A DNA stretch of 64,000 nt from NCBI GenBank assembly GCA_965213925.1, contig OZ243927.1, forward strand, positions 3,296,001-3,360,000, read 5' to 3'. The notes beneath the pieces were generated by a model. The model was not told the DNA's origin. It worked only from the letters and a program-made list of their open reading frames with translations, and did no database searches. The position numbers were made by a program, and so were the translations under genes. How positions within the stretch are numbered: the stretch's first letter is position 1; each line of letters starts with the position of its first letter. Source of the stretch: Trueperaceae bacterium (GTDB taxonomy: Bacteria > Deinococcota > Deinococci > Deinococcales > Trueperaceae). Positions 1,424 through 43,389 of the stretch are shown piece after piece.

Positions 1424-1589
1424 TCGTGCCTCCAAAGCGTGTGCCGCCTAAAACAAAGCGCAGACACAGCGAGATTGAAGCCATCGTAGTACGCTGCGCA
1501 CGCCGACCTATATTAAATCTGACACGAGCGTCACCTCAGCACGCGCAACTGTTCGAATCTTCACTTGCGAGGTCGCTGGTGGTCAAGTA

Positions 1590-1665
1590 GCAGGTATCAT
1601 CTGGTTTGAGATACTCTCACTGTGTAAGTCGGTGTCTAGCGCGCACATTCTGAGATGATGCCTGC
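1590..1665. repeat. ~76 bp intergenic element with terminal inverted repeats (family A)
   Basis: GCAGGTATCATCT...AGATGATGCCTGC; related copies at ~6371-6444 and ~21235-21298. Confidence 0.6.
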
Positions 1666-1762
1666 GACCCTCCGTCTCAGTGTGTTCTGGAAGTGCTAAA
1701 GGTAGAGAATCCGAGAGCGAGATATGTTTATAGGTGACGCTCGAGAAAGTCCTACGAGAGAC

Positions 1763-2815
1763 TCAAGCTGATGCTTGACTCTGCGCTCGGTCTGGGGTTT
1801 GCGTCAGCGCGAGTTGCCCGCACGCGCCGCCCGCGTCGCGCCCACGGCTAAAGCGCACCGACACGGAGAGCCCGGCGCGGCGCAAGGTTCCCTCGAAGGC
1901 TCTGATCTGCTCGGTGGTGCTCGAGTGGAACGTAGACGCCTGCCACGGATTGAAAGGAATTAGGTTGACGTGCGCTAGGAGCCCGTCCAGACGCTCGACG
2001 AGCGCCTCCGCTTGCCAGAGCGCGTCGTTGACCCCTTGCAGCATCGTGTATTCGACCGTGACACGTCGCCCTGTCGCCTCATGCCAGGCGTGCAGCGACG
2101 CGATGATGTCATCGATGGAGTGCGCGTGCGCGGTCGGGATAATGGCGCGGCGCGTCTCCTCATCGGGCGCGTGCAAACTCACCGCCAACACGAGCGAGAG
2201 GTCCTCTTGGGCTAAACGCCGAATCTTCTGCGGCAGGCCCACCGTCGAGAGCGTGATGCGGCGCGGCGACATGTCGAGCCCTTGCGGATGGACCATCGTG
2301 CGGATCGCGCCGACCGCGTTGTCGTAGTTGAGGAGTGCTTCGCCCATGCCCATCAATACAACGTTACGAATCTCCTTTGGAGGGAAGCCTTCGGCTCTCG
2401 CCACGTCGGTAAGTTGCGCCAGGATTTCCGCTCGCGTCAAGTTACGTCCAAAACCTAGTGCGCCCGTCGCGCAAAAGGCGCACCCCGCCGGACAGCCCAC
2501 CATTGAGGAGATACAGACCGTCTTGCGGTCGGCGTAGGGCATGTAGACGGCTTCGGTCTGCTTGCCGTCAGCGAGCGTGAAGAGGTAGCGCACCGAGCCG
2601 TCTTTGGAAGGGAAGCGCTCAGAGCGGACAAAAGGGCTCACCGTGTAGTGCGCAGAGAGCGTCTCACGCCACCCTAGCGGCAAGTTGCTCATTTCCTCGA
2701 AGCCGCTCGCGCCCCGCTCGTAAAGCCACCCCGCGAGCTGTTTGCGGCGGTAGCTCGGTCCGTCCGTTGGGAGATCAGCGAGGTTGAGGTCTAAAAGGCT
2801 AGGGCGCGTTTCCAT
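1763..2815 (-). CDS. rlmN: 23S rRNA (A2503-C2) methyltransferase RlmN, radical SAM
   Basis: [33 protein letters not shown] motifs. Confidence 0.95.
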
Positions 2816-2887
2816 CCCTCGAGCTTAGCACGCACACATTTTTAGCGAGGAAGCCGCGCAACAGCCAAAGGTGGCGGAGGCAAACGG

Positions 2888-2979
2888 CGTAGAGGCGATT
2901 CATGAATCGCCTCTACGAAGCAGCGCTGTTTGTGAATACGAACGTATCTGATGTGATGTAGGGGTGGGCCCACCCCTAC
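2888..2979. repeat. Two GTAG-type REP palindromes
   Basis: Perfect palindromes CGTAGAGGCGATTCATGAATCGCCTCTACG (2888-2917) and GTAGGGGTGGGCCCACCCCTAC (2958-2979). Confidence 0.75.
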
Positions 2980-2996
2980 GAAGTGCCGCGAACCCT

Positions 2997-3511
2997 CTAA
3001 GCCGACGGCACGTCCGACGTCAGCACGAAGACGGGCATCTTGTCGCGCAAGGGCTCCACCTCACCGCGCAGGCGCGTGAAGACCTCGGCGTCTAGGTAAG
3101 CGGCGGAGGCGCGGAGCAGTCCTAAATAGTAGGTTGCGACCAGGCGGCGCTCGCCTTCGCTCAACTCGCCGCGCTCCCTAGGGGTCAGCAATTCTTCGAT
3201 AAAATGCTCGTCCGACTCCAAGGCGCGGCAGCCGCCCTGCTCGATCATCTTCTTGAGGAAATCCACGCTCTCGCCGGGGTTGTGCCAAAAGCCGAAGTTC
3301 GTCTCCTCGGTCAGCGCCTCGACTTCGCGCAGTGACGCGCGGTAGTCGGACGCGCCTAAAACCGCCTTGGCGAGGGCTTGACGCTCGAGCCGCTTTTTCG
3401 CGTATTCGCTCAGAGACAAGTACCCTTTTAGCGGGCGCGATTTGCCGCCTACGAGCGCACGCAAGGCGGTAAGCCAATACGTAGTCCTGATATTCTAAGT
3501 AGATGCTCCAC
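2997..3511 (-). CDS. Hypothetical protein; 5' end apparently frameshifted (intact ORF 2997-3464)
   Basis: 155-aa ORF with host-like codon usage. A probable true start GTG at 3511 lies 6 nt after a TAAAAT box but is out of frame. Confidence 0.55.
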
Positions 3512-30939: not shown

Positions 30940-32298
30940 ATGACTTTAGAAGACTACTTGAGCGAGCACCAAGCTCGCTTTACCGAAGAACTCACCGACT
31001 TCTTGCGCATCCCCTCGGTCAGCACGGACTCGGACCACAAGGAGGATGTGCGCCGCGCTGCGTCCTTTGTCGCTGAGAAGTTGCGCTCAGCGGGGCTAGA
31101 AACGCGCCTCATCGAGACGCCGCGCCACCCCGTTGTTTACGGCTCCTATCACGTGTCTGACGACGCGCCTACGGTGCTCATTTACGGGCACTACGACGTG
31201 CAACCGCCCGAACCCCTCGAGCTGTGGACCTCTCCCCCCTTCGAGCCCAAGATAGAGGACGGCGTCATCTACGCGAGGGGCGCAACCGACGACAAAGGGC
31301 AGGTATACGCACATATTAAAGGGGTAGAGGCGCTGCTCGAGACTGAGGGCGCTCTAAATGTCAACGTGAAGTTTTTAGTCGAGGGCGAGGAGGAGATCGG
31401 CAGCCCGAGCCTTAACGACGTTCTCGAAAACCATCAAGACCTCTTCGCGGCGAATGTAGTCGTTATCTCAGACGGGTCAATGATTGCACCCGGCACACCT
31501 ACCATCACTTACGGTCTCAAAGGGCTCGCCTACGTCGAAGTCAACGTGCGCGGCGCAGCGCTGGACCTGCATTCGGGCGCGTTCGGCGGCGGCGTACCCA
31601 ACCCGATCAACGGGCTCGCCAAGATCATCGCGCAGCTTCACAACGAGTCGGGGCGCGTGGCGGTGCCAAGGTTTTACGACGACGTTTTAGCTATCACAGA
31701 CGAAGAGCGCGAGGCGTTTGCAAAAGTTCCTTTTGACGAACAGACGTTCGCGGAGGAGATCGGCGTGAGCGCGACGCCGGGGGAAGAAGGCTACAGCCTC
31801 TTAGAACGGCTCTGGGCTCGTCCAACTTTAGATGTCAACGGGATTGGCGGTGGCTTTCAGGGTGAGGGGGCAAAAACGGTCATTGCAGACACGGCAATGG
31901 CAAAGATTTCTTGTCGTTTGGTTCCTAACCAAGACCCCGCCGACATTACGAAGAAGCTGAGCGATTATCTTCAAGAGGTCGCGCCCGAAGGTTTAGAGGT
32001 CAGCGTGACGGACTTGCACGGCGGCTACCCAGCGCTCACCCCTCTGGACTCTCCCGCGCTTCAAGCGGCGAGTCGAGCGCTCAAAGAGGTCTACGACAAG
32101 GACCCCATCTACGCCCGCACGGGCGGCACAATTCCGGTAGTCAGCACCTTTCAGCAGCTTCTAGGCGCGGAGGTCGTGTTGGTCGGCTTCGGCTTAGAGA
32201 ATGACCGGATGCATTCGCCCAACGAGAAGTTCGACCTGGTCAATTACTACAGAGGTATCGAGACGAGCGCGGCGCTCCTCAAAGCGTTTGCTGATTAG
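30940..32298 (+). CDS. M20 dipeptidase
   Basis: YGHYDVQP, ARGATDDKG, EGEEEIGS, DLHSG, HSPNEKF; ATG 7 nt after TATACT. Confidence 0.92.
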   Translation: MTLEDYLSEHQARFTEELTDFLRIPSVSTDSDHKEDVRRAASFVAEKLRSAGLETRLIETPRHPVVYGSYHVSDDAPTVLIYGHYDVQPPEPLELWTSPPFEPKIEDGVIYARGATDDKGQVYAHIKGVEALLETEGALNVNVKFLVEGEEEIGSPSLNDVLENHQDLFAANVVVISDGSMIAPGTPTITYGLKGLAYVEVNVRGAALDLHSGAFGGGVPNPINGLAKIIAQLHNESGRVAVPRFYDDVLAITDEEREAFAKVPFDEQTFAEEIGVSATPGEEGYSLLERLWARPTLDVNGIGGGFQGEGAKTVIADTAMAKISCRLVPNQDPADITKKLSDYLQEVAPEGLEVSVTDLHGGYPALTPLDSPALQAASRALKEVYDKDPIYARTGGTIPVVSTFQQLLGAEVVLVGFGLENDRMHSPNEKFDLVNYYRGIETSAALLKAFAD

Positions 32299-32313
32299 CG
32301 CGTGTATAACGCA

Positions 32314-32342
32314 GTAGAGACGGGTTTGAAACCCGCCTCTAC
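32314..32342. repeat. GTAG-type REP hairpin between convergent genes
   Basis: GTAGAGACGGGTTTGAAACCCGCCTCTAC. Confidence 0.7.
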
Positions 32343-32369
32343 GCAATTTTTCTGTGGACAGGTTGACAA

Positions 32370-33182
32370 CTAGTTGAACGCTACGGCGTCTTCGTCGTAC
32401 TCCTCGAGTTCTTCTTCGTACTCATATTCTAAGTCGAGGGTTTGCTCGCGCGCGACCGAATAGACGAGGAAGCTAAAGCCTGCTTTGGCGAGCCAGTCCG
32501 CGACCATGTAACCGAGCTGCACGCCGACCTCCGTGGAGGAGCCTCCGAGCCCTAAAAAGGGCACCATGTAGATGACCGGGAAAAAGCCCCACGACCCCAA
32601 GAGCAAGAGCACCGAGTTGGTGACGAGGCGGCTAGCGTCTTCGTTAAGCTCCGCGAGCGCGTCGTTGAGCATCCCGTAGAGCACCCAGAGGATGTAGAGG
32701 AAAGGCAGCGTGCTGATGGTACCCCAAATCACGCGCGTCTGCGTATCAACGGAAATTTCGCCGGGATAACCGAGCGCGATCATGGCGACTGTCGCAACCG
32801 TCAAGCGGACGCCGAGCGAGCGCGCTTTCTGCCGAGAGAAGTCGAGCACGTTGACGAGCGAGAGGAGGAGGAGCGGCACGGTGGGGAGCCAGTAGACGTA
32901 GCGGTAGAGCGCAAACGGCAAAGCGCCCTCGGTCGGCACGTAGAGCCCCTCTTGGAGCGCGTAGACGCCGCGCCACTGGGTGAAGAGGAAGAGGTAGTGC
33001 AAGGCGGACAACCCGACGATGGTCGCGACCATCCAGAGCGCGGGGCGGTAGGACTCGTCGAGCTTGCGCCGCGACATGACGAAAAAGGCGGCGAGCGAGA
33101 TCATCAGCAGCGCCGTCGCGACGAACGCGACCAGAACGGCCGTGTACTGCGCCGGTGAAAGCGCACTTAAAAAGTTGAGCAT
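32370..33182 (-). CDS. Microbial rhodopsin, xanthorhodopsin/Gloeobacter-rhodopsin-like, atypical YTS motif
   Basis: Seven hydrophobic helices; YRYVYWLPTVPLLL, GYPGEI, WGTISTLPF, SWGFFP, ADWLAK; ATG 33182 after AAGGAG. Confidence 0.92.
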   Translation of the reverse strand: MLNFLSALSPAQYTAVLVAFVATALLMISLAAFFVMSRRKLDESYRPALWMVATIVGLSALHYLFLFTQWRGVYALQEGLYVPTEGALPFALYRYVYWLPTVPLLLLSLVNVLDFSRQKARSLGVRLTVATVAMIALGYPGEISVDTQTRVIWGTISTLPFLYILWVLYGMLNDALAELNEDASRLVTNSVLLLLGSWGFFPVIYMVPFLGLGGSSTEVGVQLGYMVADWLAKAGFSFLVYSVAREQTLDLEYEYEEELEEYDEDAVAFN

Positions 33183-33662
33183 AGTTCTCCTTTGCGGTGA
33201 GACGACGAAACATAACGTCAAAATTTTTTCTGACCGCACTAGAGCCGACGCTCTAAGAACTGTCAGTGACTTGTGTATCGTATGGGAGAGATCACGCCGA
33301 AAGGGTCAGATTTTTCATCTTTTTCAGAATGTGAATACTGGCAGATGTGGCACTCGAGTACCCATCAATTTCCTCGAAAAAAGCGTAAGAAGAGCGTGCC
33401 AGAAAGCATAAATACTTCTTAGCTCACCTTAACAAAAGTACTAGATTTTCGTGACTCCTCGAGTAAAAGAGGGAAAAGTCACATACTTGCAAGTCAGCGT
33501 TAAGCACTTAGGGTTTGGGTCTCGGGGCTCGAGCCTAAAGCCTAACTTCATCGTTCTTTCAGCCATATTCATAAACAGGGGCTTAGGGAAAACGAGGTGG
33601 TATACTTTCTTACAGGTAGTCAATACCTTACATAGCGAAGCGACATCACCTCAGGAGGAACC

Positions 33663-34772
33663 ATGCGCACATTCATCTTAGCTTCTCTTCTTTTAGCCTT
33701 GCCCTTAGCGGCTGCACAAGATTACGTCTTCGGCATCACCTACGACGCGGGCGGCAAGTTCGACGGCTCGTTCAACGAGGGCACGTGGAACGGTCTGCGC
33801 GACGCCGTGACCGACCTGGAGGACGAGGGTCTCCTCATCGACATCTTGGAGTTCGAAGGCACCCCCGACACCGCCGCGCAAGGTCAGCGCCAAATCGCCA
33901 GTCAGGGCGCAGAACTCATCCTCGCGCCGGGCTTTTTGCAAGCGGACGCGGTCGCGGCTGCCTCGCAGGAATTCCCCGAGACGAGCTTTGTCTTAATCGA
34001 CGCCGTCGCGGAGAACCCTAACGTTCGCAGCGTGCTCTTCAAAGAACACGAAGGCAGCTACTTGGTCGGCTACATCGCGGGCTCGCTCACCCAAACGGGT
34101 ACGGTCGGCTTCGTCGGCGGGATGGATATTCCGCTCATCCGCGCCTTCGACTTGGGCTATGAAGAGGGCGTCAAGGCGGCGTGCCCCGAGTGCGAGGTCA
34201 TCTCGAACTACGTCGGCGTGACCCCAGCCGCTTGGAACGACCCAGCGCGCGCCAAGGAACTCGCTACCACGCAGCAGGCGCAGGGCGCGGACATCATCTA
34301 CGCGGCGGCGGGCGCGTCGGGCAACGGCGTGATCGACTTCGTGAACCAGACCATGTGCTTTGAAGGCGGTGCAAACCGCGAGTCGCCGCTCGCGTCACAG
34401 ATAGAAAGCGTCGAAAAGAGCGACGCCTACGCCAGCAACTGCGAGGGTCAAAACCCCCTCTTCTTCATCGGCGTAGACTCGAACCAGAACCCACGCGGCG
34501 ACACCGACGGCAATCCCGAGACCTTGAACCACGGCTTGACGAGTATGCTCAAGCGTGTAGACACGGCTGCGTACAACGCCGCGATGGACGTCGCTAACGG
34601 CGAATTCGAGGGTGGCACGGAGAGCTTAGGTTTAGCCGAGGACGGCGTGGGCTACGCGGTGGACGAGTATAACGGCGCGCTCATCCCCGAGAGCTTAGTC
34701 ACCGAGTTGGAGTCCGTCCGGCAGCAGATTATCGACGGTGAAATTATGGTAACGGACTACCGCGAGCAGTAA
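33663..34772 (+). CDS. BMP-family ABC transporter substrate-binding protein
   Basis: GGKFDGSFN, FKEHEGSYLVG, GFVGGMD, GADIIYAAAG, IGVDSNQ, SMLKRVD. Confidence 0.92.
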   Translation: MRTFILASLLLALPLAAAQDYVFGITYDAGGKFDGSFNEGTWNGLRDAVTDLEDEGLLIDILEFEGTPDTAAQGQRQIASQGAELILAPGFLQADAVAAASQEFPETSFVLIDAVAENPNVRSVLFKEHEGSYLVGYIAGSLTQTGTVGFVGGMDIPLIRAFDLGYEEGVKAACPECEVISNYVGVTPAAWNDPARAKELATTQQAQGADIIYAAAGASGNGVIDFVNQTMCFEGGANRESPLASQIESVEKSDAYASNCEGQNPLFFIGVDSNQNPRGDTDGNPETLNHGLTSMLKRVDTAAYNAAMDVANGEFEGGTESLGLAEDGVGYAVDEYNGALIPESLVTELESVRQQIIDGEIMVTDYREQ

Positions 34773-40651: not shown

Positions 40652-42061
40652 ATGAACCTCTTTATCATCTTCGCCGTTATCGTGCTGCTGCTCGCCGCCA
40701 ACGCGCTCTACGTCGCGGCGGAGTTCGCGGCGGTCAGCGCGCGGCGCACGCGGATTCAAGAGCGCGCCGCTGAAGGCAGCCGCGTCGCAAAGTCGCTCTT
40801 AGGCGTCCTGGAAAATAGGGAGGAACTCGACCGCTACATCGCGGCGTGTCAGATAGGGATCACCTTGTCGAGCCTCGTCATCGGCTTTTATGGTCAGGCG
40901 CAGTTAGGACCCTATCTGAGCCCGCTCTTCGTGAACTTCGGCGGCTTGCAAGAGGCGGCGGCGTATTCGGTTTCAGCCATCGTCGTGCTGCTCCTCCTCA
41001 CGACCTTTCAGGTGATCTTAGGCGAACTCATGCCCAAATCCGTCGCGGTGCGCTATCCCGAACGTTTGGCGCTCATCACCACGCCGCCTATGCGCGTGTC
41101 GCTCTGGATTTTGCGCCCCTTTATCTGGCTCCTAAACGGCTCGGCGCTGGCGCTCCTCAAGTCGTTTGGCGCTGAGACGTCGCTCGAGGAGGGGCACGTC
41201 CACTCGCCCGAGGAGTTGGAACGGCTCGTCAAGGAGAGCGCGCAAGGCGGGCTCATCGACGCAGGCGAAAGGGAGATGTTAGAGAACGTCCTGCGCATCG
41301 AAACCCTCGTGGCGCGGCAGATCATGATTCCGCGCACGCGCATGGTGGTGGCGTCCGTAGAGGATGCGCCGTCAGACCTCTTGGTAAAGCTCGTGGACTC
41401 CCCGCACATGCGCTTTCCGGCGGTCGAGGACAACGTGGACAAGGTCGTCGGCATGATCCACCTGCGCGACCTCTTCGCGTTTTCGCAAGATAACCCGAGG
41501 GGCGACCTTAAAGAGATCGTCCGCGAGTTGCCGCTCTTCCCCGAATCCATCACCGTGAGCGACCTCTGGGACGCGCTCCGACTTGAGGGGCGTTACATGG
41601 CGGTCCTGTTCGACGAGCACGGCGGTACGGCGGGGCTCGTGACCTTGGAGGACATCATCGAAGAGGTCGTGGGCGAGCTGCAAGACGAGTTCGACCAGGA
41701 GACCGAAGCGGTGCGCTACGCGGACGACGGGCGCGTCTATCTGCGCGGCGACTTGCTCGTCGGGGCGGTGAACGACAGGCTGCTCTTAAATTTACCGACC
41801 AGTGAAGCGGATACGATAGGCGGACTCGTTGTAGAGCGGCTCGAGCACGTCCCCCGACAGGGCGAAGAGGTGCGCGTGGGCGGCGTCTCCCTCCGCGCCG
41901 AAAAGGTGGAAGAACGCGCCGTAACCGAGGTGAGTTTGGCGACGCCGACGGAGACGGACCCACTAAGTAAACAGGATGGGCAAACTGACGTCAAGGTGGT
42001 TGACGGCACATCTCCTGAGCCAGCAGCGGACGAGACAACCGAGCAGAAGGTACAGACATGA
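40652..42061 (+). CDS. Hemolysin-family CNNM/CBS/CorC protein, paralog 1
   Basis: YVAAEFA, QIGITL, GELMPK, CBS pair, DEHGGTAGLVTLEDIIEEVVGE. Confidence 0.92.
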   Translation: MNLFIIFAVIVLLLAANALYVAAEFAAVSARRTRIQERAAEGSRVAKSLLGVLENREELDRYIAACQIGITLSSLVIGFYGQAQLGPYLSPLFVNFGGLQEAAAYSVSAIVVLLLLTTFQVILGELMPKSVAVRYPERLALITTPPMRVSLWILRPFIWLLNGSALALLKSFGAETSLEEGHVHSPEELERLVKESAQGGLIDAGEREMLENVLRIETLVARQIMIPRTRMVVASVEDAPSDLLVKLVDSPHMRFPAVEDNVDKVVGMIHLRDLFAFSQDNPRGDLKEIVRELPLFPESITVSDLWDALRLEGRYMAVLFDEHGGTAGLVTLEDIIEEVVGELQDEFDQETEAVRYADDGRVYLRGDLLVGAVNDRLLLNLPTSEADTIGGLVVERLEHVPRQGEEVRVGGVSLRAEKVEERAVTEVSLATPTETDPLSKQDGQTDVKVVDGTSPEPAADETTEQKVQT

Positions 42062-43389
42062 TGAGCGTTCTTCTCCCCATCCTCGTGATCATCGTCCTCA
42101 TTATCTTAAACGGGCTCTTCGTCGCGGCGGAGTTTGCGATCGTGGGCTCGAGGCGCACCCGCGTCGACAAGTACGCCGAAGAGGGCAGCGCGGCGGCGCG
42201 CTACGTGCAGCGCGTGCTCTCGAGCCCCGAGAACCAAGACCGCTACATCGCCATCGCGCAGTTGGGCATCACCTTGGCGAGCATCGGCTTAGGCATGTAC
42301 GGCGAGCAGTCCATCGCGGGCTGGCTCTACGGACCCTTAGAGCAATATGGCGGCTTAGGCTACGCCGCGTCGCACACGGTCGGAACCATCGTTGCGGTAG
42401 CGTTCCTGACCTATTTTCACGTCGTCATCGGTGAGATGATTCCCAAGGCGTTAGCGCTTCAATCGCCGGAAAAGACCTCGTTTCGCGTGGCGAGACCCAT
42501 GCGCATTATGGGAACCGTCTTTCGCCCAGCAGTGTGGGCGCTCAACGGCGCGGGCACGCTGCTCCTCAAAGCGATGCGCATCCCCGAGCCCGACGCGAAA
42601 AGCCGCGTCTACACGCCGCAGGAGCTTGAGCTTGTCGTCAGCGAATCGAGCGAAGCGGGCGCGCTGGAGAGCGAGCAACAAGAACTCATCGCCAACATCT
42701 TCGACTTCAGCGAGCGCGACGTGGGGCAACTCATGACGCCGCGTCCGCGTGTAATCGGGCTACCCGTAGATAGCACCAAAGAGGATTTAGTCGCGCTCAT
42801 CCGCGAGGGTCAGCACAGCCGTTTTCCGGTTTTTGAAGGAGACTTAGACCACATCGTCGGGCTCTTACACATCAAGGACTTTATCCGCCAGCAGACGCAA
42901 GCAGAAACGCAGCCTTTCAATCTGCGCTCGCTCATCCGCCGCGCGCCGCGCGTGCCCGAGGGGATGGCAGCGGAGAATCTGCTCGAGTCCTTCAAACGCC
43001 TTAAAATCCACATGGCGGTGGTGATGGACGAGTTCGGCGGCACGGCGGGCATCGTCACGCTAGAAGACCTCTTGGAAGAGGTCGTCGGCGAGGTGCAAGA
43101 CGAGTTCGATCACGAGACCCCGCCCGTGCAGAGAGTTGATAACAACGTGCTCTTGGTGCGGGGTGACGTACTTTTGGACGACCTCAACGAACATCACGGC
43201 TTCGACCTCTCTTCGGAGACATCAGACACCGTCGCGGGACTTCTGTTAGACGAGTTAGGGCGTCCGCCTGAAGTCGGGGATGAAGCGGAGATACAAGGGG
43301 TTCACTTGGGGGCGGAAGAGGTCGAGGGGTTAGTGATCCGGAAGGTTCGCTTGACGCAGACGAGCGAACAGGTAGAGGAAGTTTCCTAA
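42058..43389 (+). CDS. Hemolysin-family CNNM/CBS/CorC protein, paralog 2
   Basis: FVAAEFA, QLGITL, GEMIPK, DEFGGTAGIVTLEDLLEEVVGE; ATGA overlap. Confidence 0.92.
   Translation: MMSVLLPILVIIVLIILNGLFVAAEFAIVGSRRTRVDKYAEEGSAAARYVQRVLSSPENQDRYIAIAQLGITLASIGLGMYGEQSIAGWLYGPLEQYGGLGYAASHTVGTIVAVAFLTYFHVVIGEMIPKALALQSPEKTSFRVARPMRIMGTVFRPAVWALNGAGTLLLKAMRIPEPDAKSRVYTPQELELVVSESSEAGALESEQQELIANIFDFSERDVGQLMTPRPRVIGLPVDSTKEDLVALIREGQHSRFPVFEGDLDHIVGLLHIKDFIRQQTQAETQPFNLRSLIRRAPRVPEGMAAENLLESFKRLKIHMAVVMDEFGGTAGIVTLEDLLEEVVGEVQDEFDHETPPVQRVDNNVLLVRGDVLLDDLNEHHGFDLSSETSDTVAGLLLDELGRPPEVGDEAEIQGVHLGAEEVEGLVIRKVRLTQTSEQVEEVS

Follow-up and report, generated by a model that had tools for sequence, protein, structure and literature searches.

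The three-residue motif of helix C, at the positions of bacteriorhodopsin (BR) D85, T89 and D96, is the working key for predicting the function of a microbial rhodopsin, and each new natural motif has so far meant either a new function or a new route to a known one. Most clades without the helix-C carboxylate pump other ions (motifs TSA, TSD, NTQ, NDQ and FSE). Of these, FSE belongs to the schizorhodopsins, a distant lineage of inward proton pumps. Anabaena sensory rhodopsin and the xenorhodopsins (DTS, DTA or DTL) have Asp at the D85 position and Pro at that of D212. Here we describe a rhodopsin gene with the motif YTS, found in a stretch of 64,000 nucleotides (the window) from the genome of a Trueperaceae bacterium (contig OZ243927.1, positions 3,296,001 to 3,360,000), to which an earlier note on this DNA had drawn attention. 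The protein, P0001, is related to the xanthorhodopsin (XR)-type proton pumps, whose motif is DTE, and shares its helix-C Tyr with the Proteo-SRs.

Proteo-SRs are proteorhodopsin-related sensory rhodopsins with the helix-C motif Y(T/C)M (Saliminasab et al. 2023, PMC10519204). In the main text of that paper, on which our residue comparison rests, Tyr replaces the carboxylate of BR D85 and Ser occupies the place of BR A53. Proteo-SRs absorb near 580 nm, the wild-type protein shows neither deprotonation of the Schiff base nor proton transport, and the Y90F substitution shifts the spectrum by about 20 nm. They are described as being without the proteorhodopsin (PR)-type His, with a His at BR Y57 and a Met at the donor site, and as 24% identical to xanthorhodopsin, nearest to the ESR/DTK pumps. 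Their genes adjoin those of Htr, CheA, CheW and CheY, and one Proteo-SR interacts with its transducer in lipids.

The gene in the window is that of an intact microbial rhodopsin, judged from its sequence, and retinal binding is predicted. P0001 matched Pfam PF01036 (Bac_rhodopsin) over residues 19-245 (2.3e-34), and seven long helices are seen in an AlphaFold2 model (mean pLDDT 82.7, pTM 0.79) for which the clade alignment was the input. When the sequence was matched to solved structures, the top five were all xanthorhodopsin-type: psXR 9wfa (the best, E 5.6e-59), Gloeobacter rhodopsin (GR) 6nwd (2.3e-55), Salinibacter XR 3ddl (1.7e-50), Thermus rhodopsin (TR) 5azd (1.4e-48) and Kin4B8 7ytb (1.7e-47). 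Sodium and chloride pumps (about 1e-18) and proteorhodopsins (about 1e-15) matched more weakly, and no schizorhodopsin was among the solved structures matched. The ATG at 33182 is favoured over a longer GTG start at 33239 because the homologues of P0001 start at the equivalent Met; the final bases 5′ of the start are kept across the congeners in the upstream alignment.

Residue equivalences were taken from HMMER alignments to GR 6nwd, psXR 9wfa and XR 3ddl, and BR equivalents were counted, with no tool output, as offsets from the XR alignment combined with the customary BR numbering. Helix C of P0001 aligned residue for residue with the DTE stretch of all three proteins. The reading of this helix in the earlier note (R94, Y97, T101 and S108, which puts Y/T/S on D85/T89/D96) was exact, its TAC at codon 97 is what the sequence has, and the other residues that it named (H62, D229 and K233, with WGFFP in helix F) were all present. 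P0001 thus has Y97 and S108 in place of the acceptor and donor carboxylates of the DTE motif, and the helix-F Tyr of the XR-type pumps is replaced by Phe. The helix-B His, the Arg, the helix-G Asp and Lys, the GYPGE stretch and the Gly at the G156 site are shared with these pumps; Arg94, Tyr63, Asp229 and Lys233 are canonical. His62, whose equivalent pairs with the acceptor in XR-type rhodopsins, now faces a Tyr as its partner. The coordinates of these residues are collected in Table 1. The genome carries blh, that is, a supply of retinal.

The motif belongs to a clade. In a homologue search, the 120 best matches in a collection of 5.8 billion proteins were taken. The first 24 (P0001-P0024) are 23 YTS sequences and one LTS sequence, P0008, and the following 96 (P0025-P0120) are all DTE. 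Seventeen additional cluster members comprise 15 YTS sequences, one LTS sequence and one fragment, and one further member, P0287, with the motif YTA, came from a profile search based on the YTS alignment. In total, the clade has 25 clusters at 90% identity (23 YTS, one YTA and one LTS). Its members are 45-89% identical to P0001, and Tyr97 is kept in all 23 YTS clusters and in P0287. The earlier note had proposed such a search for homologues with Tyr at the D85 position. Identity of P0001 to the metagenomic DTE relatives is 40-51%. Among 1.84 billion representatives at 50% identity, the whole clade is a single representative, P0008 (341.6 bits), and the next, which is DTE, scored 263.6 bits. 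Tyr was found at position 97 in none of the 107 aligned representatives of at least 225 aa among the other 149 listed (42 shorter ones were dropped). Other odd helix-C motifs occur among the XR-family representatives: VTE in P0142, with Gln at BR R82, HTQ in P0148, ETG in P0172, DNA in P0147, GTA in P0260 and several cases of DTQ.

A quick IQ-TREE analysis (LG+C20+F+G4, SH-aLRT support only) was run on 105 rows: 28 from the clade, 36 near DTE matches, the DTE copy of the window's genome, 29 representatives of the family that vary in motif, five of a second DTE group and six NDQ/NTQ pumps as the outgroup. The YTS clade was monophyletic (SH-aLRT 100, stem length 0.81). With the NDQ/NTQ root, its branch is nested among the DTE xanthorhodopsins behind a branch marked 96*, the exact sister group being left open by the tree. 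On this evidence from sequence, the tree shows YTS rhodopsins as descendants of DTE xanthorhodopsin-type proton pumps, which together with the structure matches bears out the XR-like scaffold proposed earlier. Two subclades are seen: subclade A, formed by the sequences of the window's genus, P0005 and the LTS pair, and subclade B, formed by P0015 and 19 metagenomic sequences.

In genomes the YTS gene is rare. Among the 41 nearest, it was found only in the window's own genome (G000) and in two congeners, G001 (89% identical) and G002 (84%). When a subclade-B protein was the query against 364 genomes of the phylum, 96 had a rhodopsin at E <= 1e-40; in the best 12 of those loci YTS occurred only in the same three genomes and the other nine were DTE. 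Subclade B was found in no genome among those searched. It probably belongs to the window's own family, because two genera of that family have proteins 74-75% identical to the cytochrome P450 encoded beside the subclade-B gene in the metagenomic locus L095. A metagenome scan with an alignment of YTS sequences only gave 12 loci, three of them YTS (L095-L097); these three are near-identical short contigs, so that the neighbourhood evidence for subclade B amounts to one locus type. A degenerate pattern from the mixed alignment A1 gave at least 80 genome-contig loci; the 80 listed are at most 48% identical to the query, and they supplied no context for the YTS gene. Queries of the full-text literature (by motif, by peptide, for xanthorhodopsin with Trueperaceae and for a Tyr acceptor) returned no description of a YTS rhodopsin. 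This agrees with the earlier note, which knew of no such family; Tyr at the D85 position is known from the Proteo-SRs, which by the description in the main text of PMC10519204 are unrelated. The YTS rhodopsins are therefore, as far as sequences tell, an uncharacterised, convergent offshoot of the xanthorhodopsins that is apparently undescribed.

TAC at codon 97 is one base from GAC, and the YTS protein evolves about four times faster (by dN/dS) than the DTE paralogue in the same genomes. Both facts would fit a misread base or a decaying copy of a DTE gene, which the earlier note had considered before favouring real divergence. There is now hardly any chance that this is the explanation. Tyr is present in the 23 YTS clusters and in P0287, in independent assemblies and down to 45% identity; the reading frame is whole in all three congeners; and 13 other fixed differences co-vary with the Tyr. 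Within the genus, Nei-Gojobori dN/dS values were 0.107, 0.130 and 0.117 at dS 0.60-0.85. Codon 97 is TAC in G000, G001 and L095 and the synonymous TAT in G002, which points to selection for Tyr. Over 32676-32901, codon 97 included, the contigs from two public runs had 0 differences from the window, an agreement of little independent weight since the runs may derive from the same sample and possibly are the source of the assembly itself. A conserved, monophyletic clade under purifying selection with co-varying active-site changes thus refutes sequencing error or decay. The nearest homologues proved to be a YTS clade, with a dN/dS of 0.11-0.13 within the genus, rather than DTE proteins beside one decaying copy.

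Each of the three genomes carries a canonical DTE copy beside the YTS gene; that of G000 is at C1:152.7 kb. Between G000 and G001 this paralogue is 97% identical with a dN/dS of 0.027, and the YTS copy 89% identical with a dN/dS of 0.107. The far stronger constraint on the DTE copy would be expected of two copies with different tasks. In G002, the DTE xanthorhodopsin has a frameshift in helix F and is missing its first 27 or so residues, so that it lies as two ORFs, 2268..2849 and 2812..3006 of locus L110 (G002:C2:1070000-1075000); the YTS gene is intact there. The frameshift may be that of a real pseudogene or an assembly error.

To define the changes that separate the two groups, 35 full-length YTS sequences were compared with the 96 DTE sequences, with the fragments P0006, P0007, P0122 and P0128 and the LTS pair excluded. 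A position was counted as a fixed difference when one residue made up at least 90% of the YTS set and no more than 5% of the DTE set. Fourteen positions passed (Table 1). Most lie around the Schiff base and counterion, and three are where helix G ends on the cytoplasmic side or past that point. In addition to the changes in the motif and in helix F, S59, F65, P100, T131, W230 and Q247 replace residues that are 56-100% conserved in the DTE set. The approximately 25 clusters, a small and clean set that is naturally selected, represent a proton pump converted by about a dozen defined substitutions, for which the unconverted DTE paralogue in the same genome is an internal control.

With neither a helix-C carboxylate to accept the proton nor a donor to replace it, P0001 most likely does not pump protons outward; from its residues and by analogy with known rhodopsins, we regard the loss of this activity as very probable. 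That the protein still works as an outward pump is unlikely, although Arg94, His62, Tyr63, Asp229, Lys233 and the rest of the XR scaffold are intact. Its acceptor would be Asp229, perhaps helped by His62 and Tyr97, and it would do without a dedicated donor, in the manner of DTG and DTS pumps. Three losses are fixed together across the clade, namely those of the acceptor, of the donor and of the Tyr in helix F. In G002, where the DTE copy is frameshifted, the intact YTS protein could be the only light-energy device, but that frameshift may be an error of assembly, and the other two genomes keep a DTE pump under strong constraint (dN/dS 0.027, G000 against G001). The Tyr/Asp counterion of Proteo-SRs, moreover, is described in the main text of PMC10519204 as operating with no deprotonation of the Schiff base.

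The comparison with the Proteo-SRs as described there bears on function. Both groups have a Tyr/Asp counterion and Ser at BR A53, both have lost the carboxylic donor, and both keep the equivalents of BR R82, W86, D212 and K216. P0001 differs in having Ser108, not Met, at the donor site, in that His62 and Tyr63 are both canonical, and in the absence of Htr or che genes near its gene. The placement of Proteo-SRs follows the paper's description. The His, the donor Met, the che neighbours and the closeness to ESR all set them apart from P0001, which is not a Proteo-SR. Since they are, on that description, an unrelated lineage, the Tyr of the YTS clade would have arisen independently, and from the sequences we read the Tyr and Ser common to both groups as convergence. 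A convergent Tyr/Asp counterion of this kind is testable. The distance is also seen in the structure matches: P0001 matched XR at 1.7e-50, and 4hyj, which we take to be ESR, at 1.2e-12.

On balance we lean, tentatively and at somewhat less than an even chance, towards a slow-cycling photosensor or regulator. This leaning comes from the fact that the sole Tyr/Asp counterion studied, that of the Proteo-SRs in the main text of PMC10519204, behaves in this way, from the Ser that P0001 shares with them at BR A53, and from the fixed cytoplasmic residues F238, Q247 and Y255. The Schiff-base region of a DTE pump has been rebuilt in a coordinated way. The acceptor Asp has become Tyr97, leaving a Tyr97/Asp229 pair as the counterion with Arg94, His62 and Tyr63 retained; the helix-F partner Tyr has become Phe201; Ser59, Pro100, Thr131 and Trp230 have been added around the chromophore; and the cytoplasmic donor Glu has given way to Ser108. 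In a photosensor built in this way, light would isomerise the retinal, the Schiff base would remain protonated and, after the example of the Proteo-SRs, the photocycle would be slow. The conformational change might then be read out on the cytoplasmic side through Phe238, Gln247, where the DTE relatives invariably have Lys, and Tyr255 in the acidic tail, by a partner encoded elsewhere in the genome. Both the sensory role and the cytoplasmic read-out are, of course, deduced from residues and by analogy.

Several observations weigh against a sensor. The retained His62 and the Ser in place of Met make the analogy with Proteo-SRs a partial one. A Pfam search of the 12 neighbouring ORFs found no transducer, HAMP, MCP, Che or kinase domain; in the window, genes for LigA, the M20 peptidase and a Bmp lipoprotein are among the neighbours, and L095 and L097 have neighbouring genes for a PEGA-domain protein, a P450 and a TPR protein, again with no transducer. 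The LigA of the window shares 57% identity with its counterpart from a Trueperaceae MAG and 50% with that from a Deinococcus, which suggests a Deinococcota bacterium near the Trueperaceae. A lone gene beside a separate proton pump is the usual setting of chloride and sodium pumps and not that of known sensors. The genome does have two MCP genes with CheW and CheA, at C1:1.63-1.64 Mb, approximately 1.7 Mb from the window (3.30-3.36 Mb). It also encodes a homologue of the Anabaena sensory rhodopsin transducer (ASRT; family match 2.0e-56) at C1:1696120-1696470, 1.6 Mb from the rhodopsin gene and not adjacent to it, directly 3′ of a cytochrome P450 gene (locus L113, G000:C1:1694620-1697970, ORFs 1489..1866(-) and 1898..3136(-)). 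P0001 resembles Anabaena sensory rhodopsin in its Ser at BR D96 and in the ASRT-family gene of its genome, and differs from it in having Tyr and Asp at D85 and D212 and in that the ASRT gene is not paired with the rhodopsin gene. We rejected the ASRT homologue as a transducer because its distribution does not track that of the YTS gene: it was found in G000 and G001, was not found in G002, and is present in three other genomes of the family (G008, G015 and G021) in which the search with P0001 found no rhodopsin, which indicates a rhodopsin-independent role there. A prediction of the complex between the YTS rhodopsin and the ASRT homologue (score 0.00, mark 0.32) is not evidence in either direction. 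An 85-aa ORF in L095 (2483..2740, plus strand), 155 bp 3′ of the YTS gene, was likewise discarded as a partner: it matches no Pfam family and has no homologue in G000, and so is not conserved. Longer or fused forms of YTS rhodopsins were absent among 8000 candidates, which is weak evidence.

The lone gene, and the canonical proton pump that all three genomes of the genus keep beside it, would suit an ion transporter of altered specificity, which we consider a less probable though quite possible function. In one version the protein would be an inward anion pump in which the hydroxyls of Tyr97 and Thr101 and the protonated Schiff base hold chloride; in the other it would pump protons inward, as schizorhodopsins and xenorhodopsins do, with release of the Schiff-base proton to the cytoplasm. 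That most clades without the helix-C carboxylate pump other ions speaks for transport. So does the charge balance, since the change from Asp to Tyr would leave a single positive charge without compensation, a situation also found in halorhodopsin and the NTQ pumps, and the new hydroxyls of S59, S108 and T131 line the inner protein. On the other hand, known chloride pumps have Thr or Asn at D85 where the bulky Tyr would fill the space of the anion, and YTS matches neither the motifs of the anion pumps (TSA, TSD and NTQ) nor that of any other characterised pump. Schizorhodopsins do resemble P0001 in having an aromatic residue at the site of the helix-C carboxylate and only one Asp, on helix G, as counterion. 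However, their motif is FSE and they keep Glu at the donor position, where P0001 has Ser; its sequence offers no carboxylate in the cytoplasmic halves of the helices for a proton moving inward. The one Tyr/Asp rhodopsin that has been studied transports no ions, according to the main text of PMC10519204.

The LTS variant also speaks for an anion. It consists of two metagenomic sequences, P0008 and P0125 (on contigs 358 kb and 11.8 kb long), whose branch adjoins the subclade of the window and is a long one (0.51). Both have Leu at the Tyr97 site and Thr at the Asp229 site, and hence no counterion carboxylate, and both keep Arg94, His62 and Lys233. The lack of either carboxylate almost demands an anion as counterion or a deprotonated Schiff base. 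From these sequences the variant is easiest to understand with an anion in place, which fits transport better than sensing and is a further point against the photosensor that we favour.

An accessory role is as doubtful as continued outward pumping. P0001 might be a subunit that tunes oligomers of the DTE xanthorhodopsin, which co-occurs with it in G000, G001 and G002, or it might be a photoprotective binder of carotenoid or retinal. An accessory role would accord with the cytochrome P450 gene that adjoins the rhodopsin gene in the distant subclade, and with the Gly that P0001 has at position 154, the site of XR G156, whose role as described in PMC12137139 is that of the carotenoid fenestration. 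Among 37 clade sequences this position is Gly in 29, Phe in four and Leu in four. A carotenoid antenna is thus possible for P0001, as a prediction, but it is not a feature or a requirement of the whole clade, and the strict conservation of the Schiff-base Lys together with a rebuilt counterion points to a photochemistry of its own.

There is also a modest chance, below that of an altered transporter, that the YTS proteins form a new functional class on the XR scaffold, namely a Tyr/Asp photoreceptor independent of the Proteo-SRs that has either a novel partner or a novel kind of transport. The partner might be soluble or unlinked and dock where helix G, with its clade-specific residues, ends and on the acidic tail that bears the Tyr; alternatively, there might be an anion site lined by Tyr. 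The LTS offshoot, having lost the counterion carboxylate, would then be a further step along the same path. If the YTS protein proved to be red-shifted and non-pumping, or anion-handling, it would be a xanthorhodopsin of interest to builders of optogenetic tools.

The rhodopsin gene is monocistronic, convergent with the M20 peptidase gene and divergent from a Bmp/PnrA lipoprotein gene. The order M20-YTS-Bmp is kept in G001 and the pair YTS-Bmp in G002. Table 1 lists the gene, its flanking elements and the residues discussed above.

Table 1. Features of the YTS rhodopsin locus and residues that distinguish the YTS proteins (35 full-length sequences) from their DTE relatives (96 sequences). Codons and positions are numbered along P0001.
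Feature	Coordinates in the window	Strand	YTS	DTE	Remarks
YTS rhodopsin CDS (P0001)	32370..33182	minus			270 aa plus TAG stop (32370-32372), ATG at 33182; ORF list and translation
AAGGAG ribosome-binding site	33187..33192	minus			6 nt 5′ of the ATG; read from the sequence
Hairpin	32314..32342	minus			13-bp perfect, just 3′ of the stop, between the rhodopsin and M20 genes
Intergenic region, rhodopsin to Bmp/PnrA gene	33183..33662				480 bp, divergent; blocks kept in three congeners (alignment A5)
Position 24			A	I 61%	
Position 55			I	V 96%	
Codon 59	33006..33008	minus	S (35/35)	A 100% (96/96)	BR A53 position, by offset
Codon 62	32997..32999	minus	H		PR/XR-type helix-B His retained; aligned to XR H62, clade-invariant
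Position 65			F	R 99%	
Position 92			L	gap	One-residue insertion before helix C
Codon 97 (TAC)	32892..32894	minus	Y (35/35)	D 100% (96/96)	Acceptor position (BR D85/XR D96), by alignment
Position 100			P	L 95%	
Codon 101	32880..32882	minus	T		BR T89 position; invariant in alignments A1 and A2
Codon 108 (TCG)	32859..32861	minus	S (35/35)	E 100% (96/96)	Cytoplasmic donor position (BR D96/XR E107), by alignment; Ala in the single YTA variant P0287
Position 131			T	A or S	BR D115 position
Codon 154 (Gly in P0001)	32721..32723	minus			Carotenoid-fenestration position (XR G156), by residue counting on the XR alignment
Codon 201	32580..32582	minus	F (35/35)	Y 100% (96/96)	Phe of WGFFP; BR Y185
Codons 229-230	32493..32498	minus	W at 230 (35/35)	V/I/L/M at 230	Asp229, remaining counterion (BR D212); Trp230, clade-specific
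Codon 233	32484..32486	minus	K		Retinal Schiff-base Lys; aligned to the helix-G Lys of GR, psXR and XR, clade-invariant
Position 238			F	V/L/I	
Position 247			Q	K 100%	
Position 255			Y	variable	Acidic C-terminal tail

A scan of 32200-33700 for consensus (sigma-70) promoters and terminators found none and did not call the hairpin downstream of the gene. The hairpin is nonetheless stable (-25.3 kcal/mol, z = -4.57; none of 200 shuffled sequences folded as well) and is a possible terminator that has no T-run. On the Bmp-proximal side of the intergenic region (33560-33662, columns 100-135 or so of alignment A5), an inverted repeat, GGTAT-N5-ATACC, is followed by a conserved GAGTATACCA block. Both are kept in all three congeners just upstream of the Bmp/PnrA gene, for which they may be an operator or leader element.

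The rhodopsin gene was also seen in public sequencing runs. Over 32300-33300, the runs X1, X2 and X4 gave many pieces that are 85-95% alike in addition to the exact contigs, which indicates related strains or species with the rhodopsin gene in other samples. One such piece, 642 nt long and from a run that bears the label marine metagenome, spans most of the gene with 55 differences. Elsewhere in the window, two tandem genes for CNNM/CorC-type (CBS-domain) transporters occupy 40652-43389 and overlap by four bases.

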